Under the pieces are notes generated by a model. That model was not told the DNA's origin and did no database searches. It saw only the letters and a program-made list of their open reading frames with translations. Of a stretch of 64,000 bases of DNA, positions 2,980 through 39,279 are shown one piece after another; positions within the stretch are counted from its first letter, which is position 1, and each line of letters starts with the position of its first letter. The DNA lies in the sequence record PP328843.1, one strand, 5' to 3'. Origin of the DNA: Escherichia phage 215Ecol030PP. Made by a program: the position numbers and the translations under genes.

Positions 2980-3778
2980 TATACACCTCATAGAACTTTT
3001 CATCAGGAATCCAACCGCGTTTAAATTCATTAAATGCTCGGCCGAATAATTTTGAATTCACAGTTATATTATTAACTGATTTCCATTTAGCAACTCCTGT
3101 TCGTTTATAATGATCGGGGTCATATTTCGTGACGTACCATTCATATAAATTTGGTATTAATTTTACAGCCTCTGGATTTGTCGCTGATTTATTATACCAT
3201 GGTTTCGCTTTTTCAAGTTCAGCTGCTTTTGCAGTAGCAGCAACAGTATTTCCAATACCAACTAATTTTTCAGCTTTAATGCGTGGATCATTAACATGAA
3301 GACGAAAAACTTCGCCCTTTTCATTTTTAAAGCATGTCATGCCTTTAATTCCAGGAAGCTTAACACCTTTATTAACACCGCACCATTCCTTTGGGTTAAA
3401 TGATCCTTTAATTAATAAGGCGCATTTACCCGATTTAATACTTCTCATTAAAACTTTATCTTTCATAAAGTTTTTTGACCATTCAGATACTGCTCTTTGA
3501 TGGTAAATTCTAGCGATTTCATATAATTTACTAGAACGTAAATATTTTTCAGTGTTTAACATTCTATTCATCGCATATGCCATTTCACGATTACGATGAA
3601 TTTTATATAGTAGAAAATGTGCTAAAAAGTGTTCACGAAAAGTCAGTTTCACCAAATTTTCTTTATCATCAGAACCTCCCATTGATCTTGGAAGGATATG
3701 ATGAATTTCACCCTTAAATTTAGAAACGCGGGTTTTACCCCGCACTATTAAGTCATTATAGATTTTTTCGTAATTCAC
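2960..3778 (-). CDS. mobA: MobA HNH homing endonuclease, 272 aa, inserted between topoisomerase genes 39 and 60
   Basis: HNH motif HHILPRSMGGSDDKENLVKLTFREHFLAHF; N-terminus MNYEKIYN matches the MNY..IY N-termini of the two other Mob-type ORFs in the window; apparent GTG start at 3776-3778; 3' end overlaps gene 60 start by about 20 nt. Confidence 0.85.
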   Translation of the reverse strand: MNYEKIYNDLIVRGKTRVSKFKGEIHHILPRSMGGSDDKENLVKLTFREHFLAHFLLYKIHRNREMAYAMNRMLNTEKYLRSSKLYEIARIYHQRAVSEWSKNFMKDKVLMRSIKSGKCALLIKGSFNPKEWCGVNKGVKLPGIKGMTCFKNEKGEVFRLHVNDPRIKAEKLVGIGNTVAATAKAAELEKAKPWYNKSATNPEAVKLIPNLYEWYVTKYDPDHYKRTGVAKWKSVNNITVNSKLFGRAFNEFKRGWIPDEKFYEVYNEICKN

Positions 3779-5306
3779 CTACTGTTATCCATTTACCATT
3801 AATCTGTACTTCATCATTTTCATTTACGATAATTGTATCGCCATTTAGTTCGAAAGTAAACCACTCGCCATCTTCTTTTTCTTCAAACGCTTTTTCACCA
3901 AGAACTAATCCAGTGATTGCGCAAATATCAAACAGTTCTTTGTTTTTAAGCATATCAGCATATGACATACCCCAACTGTTGAGAACTTTACCACGCAATG
4001 GATAACCACCATGAAGTTCTTTATCACGAACATCAATAAGATATCCGATAGCCGAATCACCCTCAGTCAAGAAAAGAGTAGTGTCAGCATCTTTACCACA
4101 AAGATTCGCTTTAATATGTTTATGAACCTTAGCTTTAGAAGCCTTTTTAGCCGCTTTAGTTTCTGCTGCTTTTTCTGCCGCCAATTTACGAGCTAATGCT
4201 GCTTCAATAATCGGCATTAAAATTGCTTCATTATTTAGAATAGCACGTGAAATCTTTTTAGCATCAAGTTGAATATGACTACGGATTTCACCAAATGGAG
4301 AAGTCAAACGCTCTTTAGTTTGAGAATCAAATCGCATGTTTTTCATATCACGAACAAACATAACGATAGTCAAACATTCTTTGACACGCGCTTTAGTTAC
4401 ATCAATTTTGAATTTACGTTTGATTTGTGGAATAAGGTCTTCACAAATATCATCCATAACGCAGTCAATGTGATGGCCACCATTCTTAGTGTGAATGTTA
4501 TTCACATAAGTTAATTGACGAAAACCATCCGGTGAACGACCAACCGCAATAGAACAATTTTCTTGTTCTTGAACGATAGCATGTTCATCATACTGTCGTG
4601 CATATTTCTTAAAATTGCCCTGAACCTTTTTACCATTAAAGGTAAATTGAATATCAGGATAAACTACTGCAAGTGTCTGGAGACGATCCAGTGTAATGTC
4701 AAGATAAACTTGGGACAGCTCATTAGTTTCAAATGACATAAAATCTGGAATGAAAGTAACACGAGTTCCTTTCCATTTTCCAGGAATAGTTTCCCAGGAT
4801 TTATTTTCCATGCCATTTGAACAACGAACTACAATATTATTTTGACCATCGCCAGTTTCACCAACAAACATCACAGAAAAAATGTTTGTCAAACTAGAAC
4901 CAACACCATTCATACCGCCAGTGACGCGTTCTTTATCATCACCGAAGTTACCACCTGCTTTTGGAATAGTCCATGCAGCAACAGGACCAGGAATTTCTTC
5001 ACCGGTAGGTGTTTTAACCATCGCCTGTGGAATACCACGACCGTTATCTTCAACTGTTACTTGATTGTTTTTAATAGTAACATTAATTTTATTTGCGAAT
5101 TTAAACTTAGTACGAATACCTTCATCTACTGAGTTATCGATAATTTCATCAATAAGCTTAACAAGACCAGGTACATACTGAACACTTTCCCATTTACCAA
5201 ACAGAAAGCGCTCATGCATTTCATTAGCAGAAGAGCCAATGTACATGCCGCTACGCTTTTTGATATGTTCAATATCGCTCAGAATTTTAATTTCATTCTT
5301 AATCAT
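3756..5306 (-). CDS. 39: DNA topoisomerase II large (ATPase, GyrB-like) subunit gp39, 516 aa
   Basis: GHKL ATPase and Toprim-type motifs (EDNGRGIP, GGxNGVGSS); ATG at 5304-5306 (the ORF track starts one codon upstream at a GTG). Confidence 0.95.
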   Translation of the reverse strand: MIKNEIKILSDIEHIKKRSGMYIGSSANEMHERFLFGKWESVQYVPGLVKLIDEIIDNSVDEGIRTKFKFANKINVTIKNNQVTVEDNGRGIPQAMVKTPTGEEIPGPVAAWTIPKAGGNFGDDKERVTGGMNGVGSSLTNIFSVMFVGETGDGQNNIVVRCSNGMENKSWETIPGKWKGTRVTFIPDFMSFETNELSQVYLDITLDRLQTLAVVYPDIQFTFNGKKVQGNFKKYARQYDEHAIVQEQENCSIAVGRSPDGFRQLTYVNNIHTKNGGHHIDCVMDDICEDLIPQIKRKFKIDVTKARVKECLTIVMFVRDMKNMRFDSQTKERLTSPFGEIRSHIQLDAKKISRAILNNEAILMPIIEAALARKLAAEKAAETKAAKKASKAKVHKHIKANLCGKDADTTLFLTEGDSAIGYLIDVRDKELHGGYPLRGKVLNSWGMSYADMLKNKELFDICAITGLVLGEKAFEEKEDGEWFTFELNGDTIIVNENDEVQINGKWITVGELRKNL

Positions 5307-22151: not shown

Positions 22152-22514
22152 TTAAAAGAATTTAAATTTTTTCTTTGACCTTTTATTAAATGCATCTTGT
22201 AGTTGCATTGTAATACATTTTTCTACATGAGGAGCTAACTCAGCTTTTCTTTCTTGGTCAAGAACAGCAAAGTCCATTACAACCTTTCCATCAACCCAAT
22301 CCAGTTTTGTTACATACACTATATGTGTAGAACCATCTTCTAGTTTAATGACAATCTCCTGGATAACATTTTCCATAGCGGATTTAATTATCTTAAGAGA
22401 CTCATTAAAAAGACGTTCTTTTCTTTCTTCTTCCCCCTCCGAAGAGGGGGATTCGTCGATAATTTCTAGATCTAAGTCTAAATCATCTTTATTCATTAAA
22501 TTCTTCCATATCAC
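22152..22514 (-). CDS. 40: gp40 head assembly protein (by position), up to 120 aa
   Basis: ORF between 41 and uvsX; track start is GTG, alternative ATG at 22494-22496. Confidence 0.6.
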   Translation of the reverse strand: MIWKNLMNKDDLDLDLEIIDESPSSEGEEERKERLFNESLKIIKSAMENVIQEIVIKLEDGSTHIVYVTKLDWVDGKVVMDFAVLDQERKAELAPHVEKCITMQLQDAFNKRSKKKFKFF

Positions 22515-23664
22515 TTAACTGTTCGAGGTCAGTTTCTAAATCAGCTGCTGATTTACTTTTACTTTCTGGAGATTTAAATTTTTCAACCTTTGAGTTAATC
22601 AATTCATCAACTTCAGCTTCAACAATTTCATTACTATCAATAGCACCTAACTGATAAGCACGTTTAATAGCATCTCGGAATGGTTGATGCTTAAATAAAG
22701 GACCCCAGAATGTAGTGCAGTTGGTATCTTTTGCACGCCAAGATTTTTCTTCGCGAATCATCTCGCCGGTTTCTTCGTCAAGAAATTCACGAGCATACCA
22801 GCCATTTTTAGGTTTTACTACAAATCCTAATTCAAGAGCCATATCTAACAATCCAGAATAAGGATCGATACCACCGTCAAATTTAACATCAATAAAGAAT
22901 TTACTTTTTTCTTTGACGGTACGAGATTTTTCTACATTTAGAACAAATTGATACCCCTGAAGATCAGAACCATCTTTAATCTGACGTTTACCGATAATGA
23001 ATACGGTATCAGCTGAATACATCGGTCCAGTACCACCTCCCATAACTGTTTTACTAAACATTTCTTGTGTTTCGTATGTATGGTTAATAGCAATACATGG
23101 AATATTTTTAGTACTAAAATAGGGAGTTACGATACGAAATAAGCTTTTCATTGTTTTAGCTCTAGTCATATCACTAACAACTTTTTCATTTAAAGCATCT
23201 TCAGTTTCTTTCTTAGAAGCTAAGTTACCAAGTGAATCGATAAAAACGACTACCTTTTCGCCGCGTTCAATTGCATCCAATTGATTAACCATGTCAATAC
23301 GTAATTGCTCAAGTGATTGAACCGGAGTATGAATTACTCGTTCTGGATCGACTCCCATAGACCGCAAATAAGCAGGAGTAATACCAAATTCACTATCATA
23401 AAACAAACATACTGCATCAGGATATTGACGCATGTAAGATGACACCATTGTTAATCCAAAGTTTGATTTAAATGATTTTGATGGACCTGCCAAAATTAAC
23501 AGACCAGATTGCATACCACCAGTAATTTCACCAGAAAGTGCAATATTCATCATAGGAATTTTTGTTCGAACTACATCTTTTTCATTAAAGAATTTAGATG
23601 CTGTTAATTCTGCAGTCAATTTAGAAGTAGAAGCTTTAATCAAACGAGATTTTAAATCAGACAT
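22489..23664 (-). CDS. uvsX: UvsX recombinase (RecA-like), 391 aa
   Basis: RecA fold Walker A (GPSKSFKS); ATG at 23662-23664. Confidence 0.93.
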   Translation of the reverse strand: MSDLKSRLIKASTSKLTAELTASKFFNEKDVVRTKIPMMNIALSGEITGGMQSGLLILAGPSKSFKSNFGLTMVSSYMRQYPDAVCLFYDSEFGITPAYLRSMGVDPERVIHTPVQSLEQLRIDMVNQLDAIERGEKVVVFIDSLGNLASKKETEDALNEKVVSDMTRAKTMKSLFRIVTPYFSTKNIPCIAINHTYETQEMFSKTVMGGGTGPMYSADTVFIIGKRQIKDGSDLQGYQFVLNVEKSRTVKEKSKFFIDVKFDGGIDPYSGLLDMALELGFVVKPKNGWYAREFLDEETGEMIREEKSWRAKDTNCTTFWGPLFKHQPFRDAIKRAYQLGAIDSNEIVEAEVDELINSKVEKFKSPESKSKSAADLETDLEQLSDMEEFNE

Positions 23665-23672
23665 ATAATACC

Positions 23673-24338
23673 TTATAGTAGTGTTCTTGTTCCACGAAAT
23701 ACTTCGAGCATTCTTGCATAAGATTTATTTGGAAATCCAGCTTCAATTGCTAATTTTTTAAGCTTAATAGCACCGGGTTTTCCAGAGTTTTCCCATATTT
23801 CTTTAATCTTTTCAATGTTATCCCATATTATTGGGTCACGTTTATGTGATGGTTTATTTCTATTATAACCATATGGATTATTAAGCAAAGCTTCTTTTCG
23901 TTTTGCTTTAGTTTCTTCTGACTGCTTTTTGCCTAGCTGGGCTTTCCGGCAAACATCACTAAATCCAAGATGTTTTGGTTTTCCTTTTTGAGCTTTTGAA
24001 ATTTTTTCTTTGGTTTCTGATGAAACTCTATAACCAATTCTTCTACCACCCTCTCCACCAATTTTTAAATTATAAGTCATAGGATCATTTACCACATCTA
24101 TTGTTACTAATTCTCTTTCAGCATCACGGGCTGATTTAAAATCTTTATAAAACCCAAGAATGCTTAAATTGAAATTTTTCTTACCATACTTTTTCTTGGC
24201 TTGTGCTAATAAAGTTCCTGACCCCATATAACCATCATTTAAATCATCGGTTGAATGAGTTCCATAGTAAATTTTATTATTAACTAAATTAGTTATAACA
24301 TAAGTATAATTATATTTCTTTTCTTTATGTCTTTTCAT
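23673..24338 (-). CDS. segA: GIY-YIG homing endonuclease SegA-like, about 221 aa
   Basis: GIY-YIG core (YTYVIT ... YYGTH) with repeated basic xxSxExKxK segments; ATG at 24336-24338. Confidence 0.75.
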   Translation of the reverse strand: MKRHKEKKYNYTYVITNLVNNKIYYGTHSTDDLNDGYMGSGTLLAQAKKKYGKKNFNLSILGFYKDFKSARDAERELVTIDVVNDPMTYNLKIGGEGGRRIGYRVSSETKEKISKAQKGKPKHLGFSDVCRKAQLGKKQSEETKAKRKEALLNNPYGYNRNKPSHKRDPIIWDNIEKIKEIWENSGKPGAIKLKKLAIEAGFPNKSYARMLEVFRGTRTLL

Positions 24339-24342
24339 GTCA

Positions 24343-25185
24343 TTAATCAACTGCTATTGGATGAATAGCATTAAACTTATGAAATGCTTCTGATTTTTCT
24401 TTACGCGAAACGCACATGCGAAGAACCTTTAGTGGTTCATCTTCTTCACCCAACGATTTTCGTTTTTCAATATTAGAAGTTTTCCAACGAGCTTGTTCTG
24501 GAAACTCTCTATTGATTTGCTCAAGCGCTCTATTATGTTTAGAATTACTGCGAATTGAACTACACCCACCAGGAGCTTGTGATTTTCCAGATACAACTAG
24601 ATATTTGAACAAGGCCAAATGTGGATAACCTTGATTAATTAAATTGAGAAATGCATACATATCTTCGCATAAATCAATTTTTCCATACCCAATTTGTTCT
24701 GTCGTAAGTTTTCCGAGGTCATACCATGTATTCGTGAATCCATATGAGTTTTCACGATAATTACCCCAAGATGAAGTAATTTTAAAAATTGGTAGACGAG
24801 CATGACCGTGATAATACCCGCAATCCATGGCATCCTCAACATATTGAATCAATTCATAGAACTGTTCACGAGTTAATTGATTAATTTTATCTACGCGCCG
24901 TTTATCGTCTCTCTTTCGTATTGAACTCATACGAATAGTAGTATCATCATCAATCATCCATATTCGTTGACCTGCATACATATCAGTAATTGCTTTACGA
25001 GTACCGGAAATTCCGTTTACATCATCAGGAATAGTTACAATTTTAGCTCTAGACCCATAGGCATCATAATAAGCTTTTTCTTCATGTTCACGCACTACAA
25101 TATGGGGTTCATAATCAGTCGGAAACATATCAAGGGCAGAAACTGCCCCTACACGTTGATAGCTCGGAATTACGAATTGAATCAT
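24343..25185 (-). CDS. GT-A type (DxD) glycosyltransferase, 280 aa; candidate DNA glucosyl-HMC glucosyltransferase occupying the T4 beta-gt locus
   Basis: DxD motif IWMIDDDTT; lies between segA and gene 42 where T4 carries the 351-aa GT-B beta-glucosyltransferase. Confidence 0.6.
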   Translation of the reverse strand: MIQFVIPSYQRVGAVSALDMFPTDYEPHIVVREHEEKAYYDAYGSRAKIVTIPDDVNGISGTRKAITDMYAGQRIWMIDDDTTIRMSSIRKRDDKRRVDKINQLTREQFYELIQYVEDAMDCGYYHGHARLPIFKITSSWGNYRENSYGFTNTWYDLGKLTTEQIGYGKIDLCEDMYAFLNLINQGYPHLALFKYLVVSGKSQAPGGCSSIRSNSKHNRALEQINREFPEQARWKTSNIEKRKSLGEEDEPLKVLRMCVSRKEKSEAFHKFNAIHPIAVD

Positions 25186-25823
25186 TTAAGTGCCTTACAT
25201 TTATCAAAATGGTATCTTGTCATATTTGGCCCACGTCCTTTTAGTCCGCAATGCGGACATATTTTTTCTATCAAATTATGAGGTTTTCCTTTACGATTTT
25301 TAGACATCGTTTCTTTAATTATTTTAGCTTTTTCTACGCCAAAAATTTCTTCATAAGTTTTACCAGAATTTTCCTTGGCTCGATTTATAATTCCATATGC
25401 CTGCTCATTTTTACCATACATTGGATTACCTTCGCCTTTCATTCTTTTAGAATGATCAGGACGCTTGATTCCACGAAAGGCATTTCCGCACTTATATCTT
25501 TCTTCTGGAGATAGTTTTTTACCGTACATTCCATTTAATTTGCCTGGAAAACTTCCTCCCCATGCTTCATTCTTTAAATTATATGAATCCGGACAATTAG
25601 CAGCATCTAAACAAGTTAAAATAATTTCTTCAACCTGTCTAAACATTGGTCCTTCATATAATATTTCTTTATTAAAGGATTTTATTCCATATTTCTTTTT
25701 AACATGTTGCCAAACTACACCCGAACCATCATAATTCGGGTTGTGACCATCATGACTTCCTATATACCACTTTTTAGTTTTAGGATGTTTATACTTATAA
25801 ACATGCGGCACATTTACTTCCAT
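25182..25823 (-). CDS. Seg-like GIY-YIG homing endonuclease with C-terminal zinc finger, 213 aa
   Basis: GIY-YIG core (VYKYKH...KKWYIGSHDG), repeated GKKLSPEER/GKNEQ segments, C-terminal CPHCGLKGRGPNMTRYHFDKC; ATG at 25821-25823. Confidence 0.7.
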   Translation of the reverse strand: MEVNVPHVYKYKHPKTKKWYIGSHDGHNPNYDGSGVVWQHVKKKYGIKSFNKEILYEGPMFRQVEEIILTCLDAANCPDSYNLKNEAWGGSFPGKLNGMYGKKLSPEERYKCGNAFRGIKRPDHSKRMKGEGNPMYGKNEQAYGIINRAKENSGKTYEEIFGVEKAKIIKETMSKNRKGKPHNLIEKICPHCGLKGRGPNMTRYHFDKCKALK

Positions 25824-26554
25824 TTTCCAGTATAATCCTTTTTAGCAATATGAGTCTCACCGGTGTTCCACCAATGGTCAACTAAATAAAACTGATTTTC
25901 GTACACATGAAGACTTCCAACGTTCCATATAATAGAACCTGCTTTATATTGCCGCGATGGGTCGCCTGCATTCAAATCAGATACTAATTTATCTAGTACG
26001 TATTTTTGCCAAGCATAATCATTACGATAGCCTGCCCAGCAATCATTGCTTCTCATGCTAACAACCGCATTGACTTTCTTATCACGAATCAGGTACTGTA
26101 CTGTATTCGTACACATGAAATCTGACATACCATCTTTATTGTAGTCAAATTGCATGGATGGACGAGTATAAATCATGATACCACGTCGAGAATCAGGATT
26201 TTGACCAAGTTCAGCTAAACACATGTCATATTGAGCATAGTTATCTTCTGACCAGATAGCCCAACCATAATTCGAGTTAATTTCACCTTTAGAAGATGCT
26301 ACCTGCTGCCAAATCTTTGGTGTTTCGCCTGGAATATCTTTAACAAACAAGCTCTTAGATTTATACCATTCAAGTTCACGTTGAATGTATTCATCATTAA
26401 GAGCGCCAAAAATAAACGGTTCATCTGCTACAAATGATGCGCCAATAATTTCAATAGTTTTAACACCAGTTTTATCAACTACGAAATCTTTTTCTTTTAA
26501 TGCAAGCCCCAAATGAAGACGGATTTCTTCAACTGTCATAGAGTCACTAATCAT
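25814..26554 (-). CDS. 42: dCMP hydroxymethylase gp42, 246 aa
   Basis: Thymidylate-synthase-like fold; N-terminus MISDSMTVEEIRLHLG recognised; ATG at 26552-26554. Confidence 0.93.
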   Translation of the reverse strand: MISDSMTVEEIRLHLGLALKEKDFVVDKTGVKTIEIIGASFVADEPFIFGALNDEYIQRELEWYKSKSLFVKDIPGETPKIWQQVASSKGEINSNYGWAIWSEDNYAQYDMCLAELGQNPDSRRGIMIYTRPSMQFDYNKDGMSDFMCTNTVQYLIRDKKVNAVVSMRSNDCWAGYRNDYAWQKYVLDKLVSDLNAGDPSRQYKAGSIIWNVGSLHVYENQFYLVDHWWNTGETHIAKKDYTGKWK

Positions 26555-26707
26555 TTAAACCTCAATTGATACATTCATATTTAACTTGTAACAGTAATAA
26601 ACTCCAACCTAAAATAATAGTTGGAATCATAAGAGGAACCGTTACACTATAGTATATACTTATTATAACCATCAAGATTAAAAGCAATGCTGTTATAATT
26701 TTGCTTT

Positions 26708-26959
26708 TCATTCCTTCTCTCTGATGATAATTACCTGATTTGGCTGCGCAGACTTTTTAGTTTCACCTGCAATTGACCAAATAAATGTAATAAACCAACC
26801 AATAATTGACCAGTTAAACAGTAAAGACGTGAAAAAGATTCCTACTGTCGATTTTGACCCACGCATCAAGGCGATAAACCATGGAAGCATGTATATAATA
26901 ATAGCCAACACGCCTGAAACTAAAACCATAAAAATTGAACCTGCTACTAAAGTTTCCAT
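26708..26959 (-). CDS. imm: Imm superinfection immunity membrane protein, 83 aa
   Basis: Two hydrophobic helices; sequence recognised as T4 Imm. Confidence 0.85.
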   Translation of the reverse strand: METLVAGSIFMVLVSGVLAIIIYMLPWFIALMRGSKSTVGIFFTSLLFNWSIIGWFITFIWSIAGETKKSAQPNQVIIIREKE

Positions 26960-37223: not shown

Positions 37224-38426
37224 TTATTTTGTAATAATGTCAAACTGTTCTTTAAAGCAGAAGCTTGAATCTTGATGCTGATACAAAAATTCATATGCTT
37301 TTTCTCGCTCACGGTCATAAAGAGCTCGGTCAGATGACAGTTCTTTAATACGCTCGAATGTTGATTCCATGTCATTTTCATCAAACCAAACGATACCGCT
37401 ATCATGAGAAATTAATGGAGTGTTATCAACACGGAATTTTAAATTTTCGCCTGTAGATTTCCAAAATACCGGAATTGTTCCACATGCACCAAGCTCGAGA
37501 TGAGTATATTCTAAAGAACGTTGTAGATATTTTTTATCTAATTTACTCAGCTGATAACCAAATCCGGATTTACTCATGCGTTCAAGCATTTCGCTATTTA
37601 CATAACGATCGAGAATTTGCGTTGGCAAATTAGGAGCAATTTTAATTTGGTCTACTTGATGAAGACGATAATACTCGTATGGAATTCCTTTTTCTTTAAT
37701 AGGAATGAACGCTGGAGAACGTTCCAGACCTTCCATAATAGTACTCAATCCCGCAGGTTTAAGATGTTTTTCATGAAAATCAAACATCTGATAAAAGCCT
37801 TTCCATGTAGTAGTACGACCAATCCAACGGTTGATATTCATGTTAATTTCAGAAACATCTTTCCAGTAGGTTGATCGAACCTTCGCAATATCCATAGGAG
37901 GCTGAAAGTTATATACGGTCGGTGCTTCTTCAATATCATCAAACAAAGAAACAGTTTCCGGATACCATTCTTTCATTAAAACTTTATTAAAATCACCATT
38001 ATCAGAATGGCTAAAAATAACATCAGCTCGACGAACAGTTTCTTCTAATCCCAAATTTCGACGCAAAGAAAGAGAAGAATGGTCATGCTGATAAACTACA
38101 ACACGAACCGAAGGTTTAATGTTATCAATAATTTTTTTATAGTTATTAATAGTGTCTTCTTCGACTGAAGTAGCAGGAACTGAATTGATAACTAGAATAT
38201 CACAATCATTTACCAGCTTAAGTGTTTTATCGTATTCTTTTGCCAATAAAACCGGAATTGAAAATGATTTATAATCATGCGCGCAATTACGGGTAAATGA
38301 TTTATCTTTAGCATAAACCAAAGTTACTTCATGACCATTTTTAATAAACCAATCACGCTGCTCGAGTGAGAATTTTGTTACACCACAACCTTCAAGACCC
38401 CGAGCCATAAAAATGCAAATACGCAT
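37224..38426 (-). CDS. agt: DNA alpha-glucosyltransferase, 400 aa
   Basis: ATG at 38424-38426 with AAGAGGAAA SD (track start is an upstream TTG); size and N-terminus MRICIFMARGLEGCGVTKF match T4 alpha-gt. Confidence 0.88.
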   Translation of the reverse strand: MRICIFMARGLEGCGVTKFSLEQRDWFIKNGHEVTLVYAKDKSFTRNCAHDYKSFSIPVLLAKEYDKTLKLVNDCDILVINSVPATSVEEDTINNYKKIIDNIKPSVRVVVYQHDHSSLSLRRNLGLEETVRRADVIFSHSDNGDFNKVLMKEWYPETVSLFDDIEEAPTVYNFQPPMDIAKVRSTYWKDVSEINMNINRWIGRTTTWKGFYQMFDFHEKHLKPAGLSTIMEGLERSPAFIPIKEKGIPYEYYRLHQVDQIKIAPNLPTQILDRYVNSEMLERMSKSGFGYQLSKLDKKYLQRSLEYTHLELGACGTIPVFWKSTGENLKFRVDNTPLISHDSGIVWFDENDMESTFERIKELSSDRALYDREREKAYEFLYQHQDSSFCFKEQFDIITK

Positions 38427-38484: not shown

Positions 38485-39279
38485 CTACGAATAGGCCCAA
38501 ACATATCCATAAGCAATTTTGCTTTTTCCAGATATGCACTTTTTAATATTAGACATGCATCCTTTAACGGATACAGCTGCGTCTTTAATTTTAGGAAATA
38601 CTCGTAATAATTTTCCAGTAGTATCATATTGAAATACTGGCACATTTCTTTTCTGAGTTATCCCACGTTTAGATTTAGACATTTTTTGTTTAGTTGCATT
38701 AGACATCCTAGAGGGCTTTCCTATGTTATCAGAATAATAATATTTCCATTGAAATCCTCCAGCGGTTTTCCTTTTCCCATCTACACATTGTTTAATTGAA
38801 CTTGAACAGCTATATGACATATCTTCTGCAGCATCTGTAATACATCTATATTTGCGAATAAAATTTCCATTTAAATCATATTGATAAATTGGTTTTCCAG
38901 CATTTCGTCTAGCGTTAGACATGTATTTTTTATTATCATCATCTTTCCAGAACTCTTTCATGCCTTCCGATATTGAGGAAGATACGGCTGTTTTAATCCA
39001 TCCATACATTTTATTATTTAGTCTTGTTCCGTCAGAACTATAACACATCATACGAATAGCTAAAGCCAATTTAGGAAGTCTATAAATTTTAAATAATAAT
39101 AAATGCGCGGTAAAATGTTCTTCTGGTGTCAAAAGAACTAAATTAGTTTTATCATCTGTACCACCCATACATCTAGGAATTATATGATGAGTTTCAGTAT
39201 AGTATGTCAAAAGACTTTTATCATTGCCTCTGTTTAGTCCTTTTTCGATCAGTAAATTATATATGTTTAAATAATTCAT
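38485..39279 (-). CDS. mobB: MobB-like HNH homing endonuclease, 264 aa
   Basis: HNH motif THHIIPRCMGGTDDKTNLVLLTPEEHFTAH; N-terminus MNYLNIYN; free-standing next to agt. Confidence 0.78.
   Translation of the reverse strand: MNYLNIYNLLIEKGLNRGNDKSLLTYYTETHHIIPRCMGGTDDKTNLVLLTPEEHFTAHLLLFKIYRLPKLALAIRMMCYSSDGTRLNNKMYGWIKTAVSSSISEGMKEFWKDDDNKKYMSNARRNAGKPIYQYDLNGNFIRKYRCITDAAEDMSYSCSSSIKQCVDGKRKTAGGFQWKYYYSDNIGKPSRMSNATKQKMSKSKRGITQKRNVPVFQYDTTGKLLRVFPKIKDAAVSVKGCMSNIKKCISGKSKIAYGYVWAYS

Follow-up and report, generated by a model that had tools for sequence, protein, structure and literature searches.

The window analysed here comprises 64,000 nucleotides (nt) of the genome of Escherichia phage 215Ecol030PP (record PP328843.1), and its locus of interest lies on the minus strand between uvsX and gene 42, the gene of dCMP hydroxymethylase. 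The open reading frames (ORFs) follow each other in a tightly packed operon in the order uvsX, segA, an ORF of 280 amino acids (aa), an ORF of 213 aa and gene 42. According to our analysis, the locus holds the ordinary T2/T6-type hydroxymethylcytosine (HMC) glucosylation module of Tequatrovirus together with two independent selfish endonuclease genes, segA and the 213-aa ORF, for which we coin the label seg213 and which probably homes with gene 42 as its target; we assign this reading a probability of about 85%. Both the 280-aa and the 213-aa ORF had been placed between segA and gene 42 by an initial annotation of this DNA, and both were found there on the minus strand (Table 1). Hundreds of close and dozens of distant homologues exclude a chance ORF in either case.

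By homology, the 280-aa protein is a beta-glucosyl-HMC-alpha-glucosyltransferase of the T2/T6 type, and its gene is referred to below as beta-alpha-gt. It matches PHROG 842, the family of this name, with an E-value of 5e-88 and scores 39.8 bits (cutoff 27.5) with the Pfam family TAGT (PF20691), with which beta-alpha-gt has been equated (PMC13216743). Identity amounts to 96.8% with the T2 and 96.1% with the T6 protein (ggt; tblastn). The motif IWMIDDDTT occupies residues 75-83, and D79-D80-D81 and 37 other positions are invariant among homologues down to 31% identity; all 40 positions, R11 and the DDD triplet included, are intact in the window copy. A sequence search of the PDB with this protein gave nothing significant, and structure prediction (AlphaFold2, AF2) followed by Foldseek was used instead. 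The model has a predicted local distance difference test score (pLDDT) of 70.7, with residues 1-80 at 83-95 and the triplet directly after a predicted strand (74-78), and all the leading PDB matches come from GT-A enzymes, namely K4CP, TarP, TarS, PcManGT and the ABO transferases GTA/GTB (probability about 1.0). The initial annotation had recognized a GT-A type protein with a DxD motif and had pointed to a profile and structure comparison with the T2/T6 enzyme. The invariant triplet, the fold matches and the identity of 96-97% bear out the former, and the comparison places the protein in this family.

The T2 and T6 enzymes add glucose in beta-1,6 linkage to alpha-glucosyl-HMC, yielding gentiobiosyl-HMC, which makes up 5% of HMC in T2 and 72% in T6 (PMC6024577). 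With the alpha-glucosyltransferase gene (alpha-gt) and gene 42, the window also contains the supply of the alpha-glucosyl-HMC acceptor. Retention of alpha-gt had been noted before and is confirmed by a full-length match of its product to the T4 AGT structures 1xv5 and 1y6f (E-value 2e-257 over residues 1-400). Because the 280-aa protein corresponds to the T2/T6 enzyme and alpha-gt is retained, gentiobiosyl-type modification of HMC, which the initial annotation had offered as a possibility, is the correct prediction for this phage, and one that is already textbook. By extension from the characterized T2 and T6 enzymes, to which the window protein is homologous, alpha-gt would make alpha-glucosyl-HMC and beta-alpha-gt would add a second glucose from UDP-glucose in beta-1,6 linkage to give gentiobiosyl-HMC. 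Beta-glucosyl-HMC of the T4 type is not expected, because beta-gt, the beta-glucosyltransferase gene of T4, is absent from this locus.

Some deposited alleles of beta-alpha-gt from T2 and T6 are odd in ways that the window copy is not. One T6 record (MH550421) carries TAG at codon 10 (Q10 amber), in another (AP018814) the DDD triplet is shortened to DD, and a T2 record (AP018813) has R11H at the family-invariant arginine. These could be mutations of laboratory stocks or sequencing errors, and R11H might be related to the low (5%) gentiobiosylation of T2.

At an identity of at least 90%, beta-alpha-gt is present in 472 phage records (688 with other genera counted) and T4-type beta-gt in 29, mostly T4 isolates, so that T4 is the exception. 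In T2 and T6 the gene order is uvsX, beta-alpha-gt, 42 with no endonuclease genes, and the counterpart interval of T4T (HM137666) reads uvsX-segA-b-gt-42, in agreement with the beta-gt that the initial annotation had assigned to T4 at this place. Directly upstream of segA, T4 reads TTCATCgAATAGCAGTTGATTAATG, which at 24 of 25 positions matches the final 23 nt of the beta-alpha-gt ORF and 2 further nt. This remnant (T4T locus ~3735-3760) ends exactly where genomes without segA diverge, and in the window 99.2% homology to T4 begins at position 24365. Because T4 keeps these 23 nt of the beta-alpha-gt 3' end, we read its beta-gt arrangement as derived and the beta-alpha-gt arrangement as the majority and apparently older state in Tequatrovirus. 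The initial annotation had seen an unusual locus swap in the window; with 472 records against 29 and the remnant in T4, it is T4 that departs from the rule. Since the remnant lies directly upstream of segA, segA appears to have first adjoined beta-alpha-gt, as it does in this window, and the beta-gt of T4 either replaced beta-alpha-gt or was later joined to the segA flank. The remnant thereby gives a direction to the history of the modification difference between T4 and T2/T6.

Between gene 42 and uvsX lies a hot spot of transferase cassettes. CC31 (Karamvirus, GU323318) and the Tequatrovirus KMB26 (OR539218) carry tandem transferases in the order 42, beta-alpha-gt, beta-gt-like gene, uvsX; the beta-alpha-gt of KMB26 is 96.5% identical to the window copy and its beta-gt-like gene 54% identical to T4 beta-gt. 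An origin of T4 by simple deletion from such a two-transferase ancestor was considered and ruled out, as the T4 remnant lies downstream of beta-gt and not upstream. Between beta-gt and the remnant, T4T has a 185-nt spacer (~3735-3920) with a small hydrophobic ORF (MLGPLLLIIGLGLFAFWDFFCYID) that is unannotated in that record.

The gene seg213 is an exact insertion of 630 bp at the junction of the gene 42 stop with the start of beta-alpha-gt. Where it is missing, the TGA of gene 42 overlaps the ATG of beta-alpha-gt (AAATGATTC); where it is present, the ATG of seg213 overlaps the stop of gene 42 and its TGA the ATG of beta-alpha-gt, so that both overlaps are recreated. At an identity of at least 95% the gene is found in 77 records, about 16% of the Tequatrovirus genomes with beta-alpha-gt (~472), where copies are 98-100% identical, and it is absent from T2, T6, 235Ecol030PP and PD112. 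Jiaodavirus (Mexia, KP185, Roth67) and Yersinia phage MHG19 have orthologues of 65-69% identity at this position. Most records annotate the product as "hypothetical protein".

The seg213 product is supported, by homology and by its model, as a Seg-like free-standing GIY-YIG endonuclease with a C-terminal zinc-binding motif and possible NUMOD3-like repeats, in line with the Seg-like endonuclease with a C-terminal zinc finger described in the initial annotation. It matches the homing endonucleases of PHROG 314 (E-value 8e-30), and a database search returned 70 homologues, several of them with Pfam matches to SegE_GIY-YIG, NUMOD3 or GIY-YIG: two (P0059 and P0066) carry PF01541, others PF19835 (SegE_GIY-YIG), and many a precomputed PF07460. 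The GIY/YIG-type motifs of the protein read VYKY ... WYIGS. In an alignment of 35 sequences, Y20, G22, G33, G46, G94, C189, C192, R203, H205, F206 and C209 are invariant, so that the C189-x2-C192 ... H205-x3-C209 motif is present in 35/35 homologues; conservation is almost complete at Y9, the Y-x-GSG motif, YN (81-82) and the NGM/NPM repeats, and E64/65 is conserved as well. A sequence search of the PDB with the 213-aa protein found nothing significant. The AF2 model (pLDDT 87.5), in which the C-terminal knuckle forms a small beta-hairpin and a helix, has the catalytic domain of I-TevI as its top PDB match (1mk0; probability 1.00, template modelling (TM) score 0.66 on target, root-mean-square deviation 2.9 A), and the two structures of this domain, 1mk0 and 1ln0, score 0.60-0.66 on target. 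The closest relative in T4 is segC, with 34.7% identity over 62% of the protein.

Several lines of evidence tie seg213 to gene 42 and not to the transferase. Gene 42 encodes a Thymidylat_synt protein (Pfam) that does not differ from T4 and T2 gp42 in residues 1-152 (100% identity). Its nucleotide sequence in seg213 carriers (the window, Manna and fPS-2) differs from that in T2, T4, T6 and 235Ecol030PP at 68-74 nt, and about 57 of these mismatches fall into the last 285 nt, a divergence of ~20%, while over the first 456 nt identity is ~97% and the encoded protein does not differ. The same distribution is seen in Jiaodavirus. In the comparison of Mexia, which has seg213, with Mineola, which lacks it, every 57-nt stretch as far as nt 456 has 0-1 mismatches and the next ones 5, 15, 25, 17 and 12, and the left boundary of the divergent tract is thus common to both genera. 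Carrier alleles of both genera encode MRSND-CWAGY-RND and (E/Q)NQF, non-carrier alleles, that of CC31 included, MRSND-VVFG(F/Y)-RND and (S/E)RHF, and the Arg-Ser codons of this patch change from CGC TCA to AGA AGC in carrier alleles. The 45-nt patch (nt 496-540) groups sequences according to the presence of seg213, irrespective of genus (window-Mexia 80%, window-T2 60%, Mexia-Mineola 67%), upstream of which Mexia and Mineola are 99.6% identical. The divergent tract was found at an identity of at least 95% in 75 records, against 77 records with seg213.

The link extends beyond these genera. Six distant homologues of seg213 (44-52% identity) on unrelated phage backbones all lie directly downstream of a same-strand PF00303 (Thymidylat_synt) gene (6/6), and their downstream neighbours are unrelated, with a TAGT gene in 0/6. 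The window itself is 99% identical to the seg213-less 235Ecol030PP across beta-alpha-gt, segA and uvsX, and the beta-alpha-gt allele does not track the presence of seg213 in these comparisons. Two metagenome contigs (L015/L016, with homologue P0041) hold a thymidylate-synthase-family gene with MRSND-AWAGY-RND and YEKQF, which resembles the seg213-linked gene 42 allele of T-even phages, and a second NUMOD3-type ORF ~1 kb downstream. The CWAGY/ENQ signature was considered as a general mark of thymidylate-synthase-family genes beside seg213 relatives and rejected: one of six is similar (AWAGY/EKQ), and we claim no universal immunity motif.

We posit that seg213 spreads by intronless homing with gene 42 as its target, because of the thymidylate-synthase neighbours in 6/6 distant contexts, the divergent 3' tract of gene 42, the clustering of its patch and the agreement of 75 with 77 records. 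In a mixed infection, the seg213 product would cut gene 42 alleles of genomes without the gene within the last ~250 nt, most likely in the codons for MRSND-VVFG(F/Y)-RND; nt 496-540 and the last ~100 nt of gene 42 are the candidate cut sites. Recombinational repair from the carrier genome would then copy seg213 along with the adjacent 3' part of gene 42, and the carrier would be shielded from its own endonuclease by the recoding of this part (CWAGY, ENQ). We lean slightly towards a broader proposal, in which seg213 represents an undescribed GIY-YIG/CCHC homing clade that is specialized on thymidylate-synthase-fold pyrimidine hydroxymethylase genes across unrelated phages, cuts active-site coding sequence (RSND...RND) and spreads with a recoded gene 42 3' end in which five residues by D179 are changed (VVFGF to CWAGY).

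Two genomes may represent decay stages of such an endonuclease life cycle. Escherichia phage PD112 (NC_054928, gene 42 at locus 3075-3815) has an empty site and a seg213-type allele (CWAGY, PS, ENQ) up to ~nt 684, followed by a T2-type sequence in the last 57 nt; 11 records belong to this class of 90-95% identity, and the PD112 allele is probably resistant to seg213. In Klebsiella phage vB_KpnM_GF (MK421971, locus ~1364-2100), a deletion has taken ~32 codons from the end of gene 42 together with most of the seg213 orthologue, leaving a truncated gp42 ORF of 214 aa and then, out of frame, the final ~33 endonuclease codons with the CCHC knuckle.

The second endonuclease gene, segA, is rare (~25/489 matching records). 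Its product is 99.5% identical at the amino-acid level to T4 SegA, scores above the Pfam cutoffs for both GIY-YIG and NUMOD3, and is encoded at the matching position between uvsX and the glucosyltransferase gene. The target gene of SegA is uvsX (PMC2988022). At the DNA level, the uvsX of the window is 99.2% identical to that of T4 and 87-88% identical to those of the segA-less T2, T6 and fPS-2, a pattern that fits SegA targeting uvsX and looks like a SegA co-conversion tract, in which the T4-type uvsX allele would have been dragged in with segA. Both segA and seg213 around beta-alpha-gt occur elsewhere only in Salmonella phage Manna (98.1% identical) among database records. We conclude that beta-alpha-gt is a passenger between two endonuclease insertion sites and not the cargo of seg213.

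Several observations weigh against parts of this reading. The beta-alpha-gt model is of moderate quality (pLDDT 70.7), with Foldseek E-values of ~1e-3 and mainly the N-terminal 90-130 residues aligned, and the extent of gentiobiosylation is not predictable from sequence, as T2 and T6 differ (5% vs 72%) with nearly identical enzymes. For the seg213 product itself, Pfam GIY-YIG (PF01541) gives no match, NUMOD3 stays at 18.0 bits below its cutoff of 20.4, and the 35 aligned sequences hold no conserved arginine that matches R27 of I-TevI; SegA, likewise without an obvious R27 equivalent, is an active enzyme (PMC2988022). With regard to the target, the candidate cleavage site is deduced from allele patterns, seg213 status groups the alleles at two patches of gene 42 (nt 496-540 and ~641-741), either of which may hold the cut site, and CWAGY is not universal beside distant relatives, with a similar AWAGY in only 1/6. 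The divergent tract could also reflect simple linkage from one recombination event, against which its recurrence in two genera argues.

The missing Pfam match and R27 equivalent would also suit an endonuclease gene that is inactive or in decay, or one domesticated to encode a DNA-binding protein, hitch-hiking beside a gene 42 tract formed by ordinary mosaic recombination. Decayed forms do exist, as in phage GF, and with copies 98-100% identical, purifying selection is not judgeable within Tequatrovirus. We nevertheless regard this as unlikely: seg213 ORFs remain intact and full-length in homologues of as little as 44% identity, the nuclease-domain residues being conserved and the CCHC motif invariant; the position after thymidylate-synthase-fold genes in unrelated backbones requires repeated site-specific invasion; and the tract starts at one and the same left boundary in both genera, with a patch that follows seg213 status. 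The initial annotation had suggested instead that an endonuclease may have mobilized the transferase, in which case seg213 or segA would have moved the cassette and repair would have brought beta-alpha-gt in place of beta-gt. Homing endonucleases do co-convert flanking DNA and account for marker exclusion in T-even crosses (PMC2988022), and their role as movers of base-modification genes has been a matter of speculation (PMC8056088). Moreover, segA adjoins whichever transferase is present, beta-gt in T4 and beta-alpha-gt here, and as the next long homology of a T4 donor lies only in gene 42, segA homing could in principle drag the transferase gene. Such mobilization is nonetheless quite improbable in our view, given that the seg213 family accompanies thymidylate-synthase-fold genes and has a transferase neighbour in none of six distant contexts, that the divergent tract is confined to the gene 42 side, next to a beta-alpha-gt 99% identical to that of a seg213-less genome, that most beta-alpha-gt genomes, including T2 and T6, have neither endonuclease, and that beta-alpha-gt is the majority and apparently older state, with its 23-nt remnant in T4. 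Finally, the transferase might have diverged from the T2/T6 specificity towards another sugar, linkage or acceptor and so produce a new modification. TAGT-family enzymes of other phages are linked to other modifications, and the window protein differs from those of T2 and T6 at 9-11 residues. We hold this to be very improbable, as the identity to T2/T6 is 96-97%, the 40 family-invariant positions including R11 and DDD are intact, genomic context and the alpha-gt partner are as in T2/T6, and ordinary coliphages hold hundreds of near-identical copies. The preferred reading remains a T2/T6-type module flanked by two independent endonuclease genes.

The coordinates of the features are listed in Table 1.

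Table 1. Features of the uvsX-gene 42 locus and its alpha-gt partner in the window (positions on the 64,000-nt stretch).
Feature	Position	Strand	Basis or remark
uvsX	22489-23664	-	T4-type allele, apparently co-inherited with segA
segA (GIY-YIG homing endonuclease)	23673-24350 from TTG; 23673-24338 from ATG (221 aa)	-	T4 SegA orthologue
Last 23 nt of beta-alpha-gt ORF + 2 nt, flank retained by T4 upstream of segA	24341-24365	-	24/25 identity to T4
beta-alpha-gt, gene of the beta-glucosyl-HMC-alpha-glucosyltransferase (280 aa)	24343-25185	-	PHROG 842, Pfam TAGT PF20691
DDD (D79-D81), DxD metal and nucleotide-sugar binding motif of beta-alpha-gt	24943-24951	-	Invariant; canonical GT-A position
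seg213 (label coined here), predicted free-standing Seg-like GIY-YIG endonuclease gene, 213 aa	25182-25823	-	PHROG 314, fold match
seg213 insertion, 630 bp, present or absent between genomes	25188-25817	-	BLAST breakpoints vs 235Ecol030PP, T2, T6
C-terminal CCHC zinc knuckle of seg213 (C189, C192, H205, C209)	25197-25259	-	Alignment
gene 42, dCMP hydroxymethylase, thymidylate-synthase fold; predicted seg213 target	25814-26554	-	Pfam Thymidylat_synt
Divergent 3' tract of gene 42, seg213-linked; read as co-conversion or immunity tract	25814-26098	-	Mismatch distribution
45-nt patch of gene 42 encoding M-R-S-N-D-CWAGY-R-N-D beside catalytic D179; in seg213-less alleles a candidate site of cleavage or recognition	26015-26059	-	Allele clustering
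alpha-glucosyltransferase (alpha-gt)	37224-38426	-	T4 AGT structures

With regard to expression signals, a sigma-70 promoter scan of 23500-26800 was uninformative (14 sites vs 15.8 expected), and the T4 late-promoter sequence TATAAATA does not occur in the locus. On the minus strand at 25131-25151, 35-55 nt inside the beta-alpha-gt ORF, there is a GC-rich hairpin with a T-rich run after it (TAGGGGCAGTTTCTGCCCTTG ATATGTTTCC). Both T2 and T6 have kept this element, which bears a terminator annotation in Yersinia phage fPS-2, and attenuation or translational control of beta-alpha-gt is possible. Directly upstream of alpha-gt, at the position of mobB in T4, a minus-strand ORF of 264 aa (38485-39279) has an HNH-like motif (HHIIPR...TNLVLLTPEEH); it is another free-standing endonuclease gene that adjoins a DNA-modification gene.

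Textbook knowledge covers the transferase, its chemistry and the way it alternates with T4 beta-gt, and the presence or absence of endonuclease genes as the main variation of this region, with homing endonucleases as drivers, has been discussed before (PMC8056088). Our literature search found no publication on an endonuclease associated with gene 42 or beta-alpha-gt, or on the seg213 family. We file seg213 as a new, modestly novel addition to the Seg-like free-standing GIY-YIG endonucleases and as a candidate homing endonuclease for gene 42. The natural, putatively immune alleles and the empty-site alleles in sequenced phages would ease the mapping of its target. If the broader proposal of a specialized homing clade is true, a selfish element reshapes gp42, the enzyme that makes hydroxymethylcytosine, and moves it between genera. 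The DNA of this phage is predicted to carry alpha-glucosyl and gentiobiosyl HMC and no beta-glucosyl HMC, which would affect its susceptibility to glucosylation-reading defences, among them Brig1-type glycosylases and GmrSD-type restriction enzymes (PMC13216743).

Compared with known systems, the beta-alpha-gt of the window agrees with those of T2 and T6 in its 280 aa, its position directly downstream of gene 42, its DDD triplet and its alpha-gt partner, and differs in 9-11 substitutions and in being flanked by segA and seg213, neither of which is present in T2/T6. With T4 beta-gt it shares the interval between gene 42 and segA/uvsX and the glucosylation of HMC DNA from UDP-glucose. Fold and sequence are unrelated, however, the T4 enzyme having a GT-B fold and acting on free HMC and not on alpha-glucosyl-HMC.

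Like SegA-G of T4, seg213 is a free-standing gene in the same orientation between conserved genes, with an N-terminal GIY-YIG domain and a possible NUMOD3-like linker, but it is orthologous to none of the T4 seg genes and is set apart by its C-terminal CCHC knuckle and its predicted target, gene 42. The closest parallels to seg213 and gene 42 are SegF with gene 56 and SegG with gene 32, for which comparable intronless homing has been described (PMC2988022). They share with seg213 the presence/absence polymorphism and a divergent flank in the neighbouring essential gene, and with SegF and SegG co-conversion starts from a cleavage site that is not at the insertion itself but at a distance. In theme, seg213 also resembles I-TevI and I-BmoI, whose targets are thymidylate synthase genes and which make use of conserved coding sequence (PMC5009752). 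Shared features are a GIY-YIG nuclease domain, a zinc-binding element and a target gene of thymidylate-synthase fold, predicted in the case of seg213, whereas seg213 is free-standing and not intron-encoded, is inserted after the stop codon and not inside the gene, and carries its zinc motif as a C-terminal CCHC in place of the Cys4 in the linker of I-TevI.

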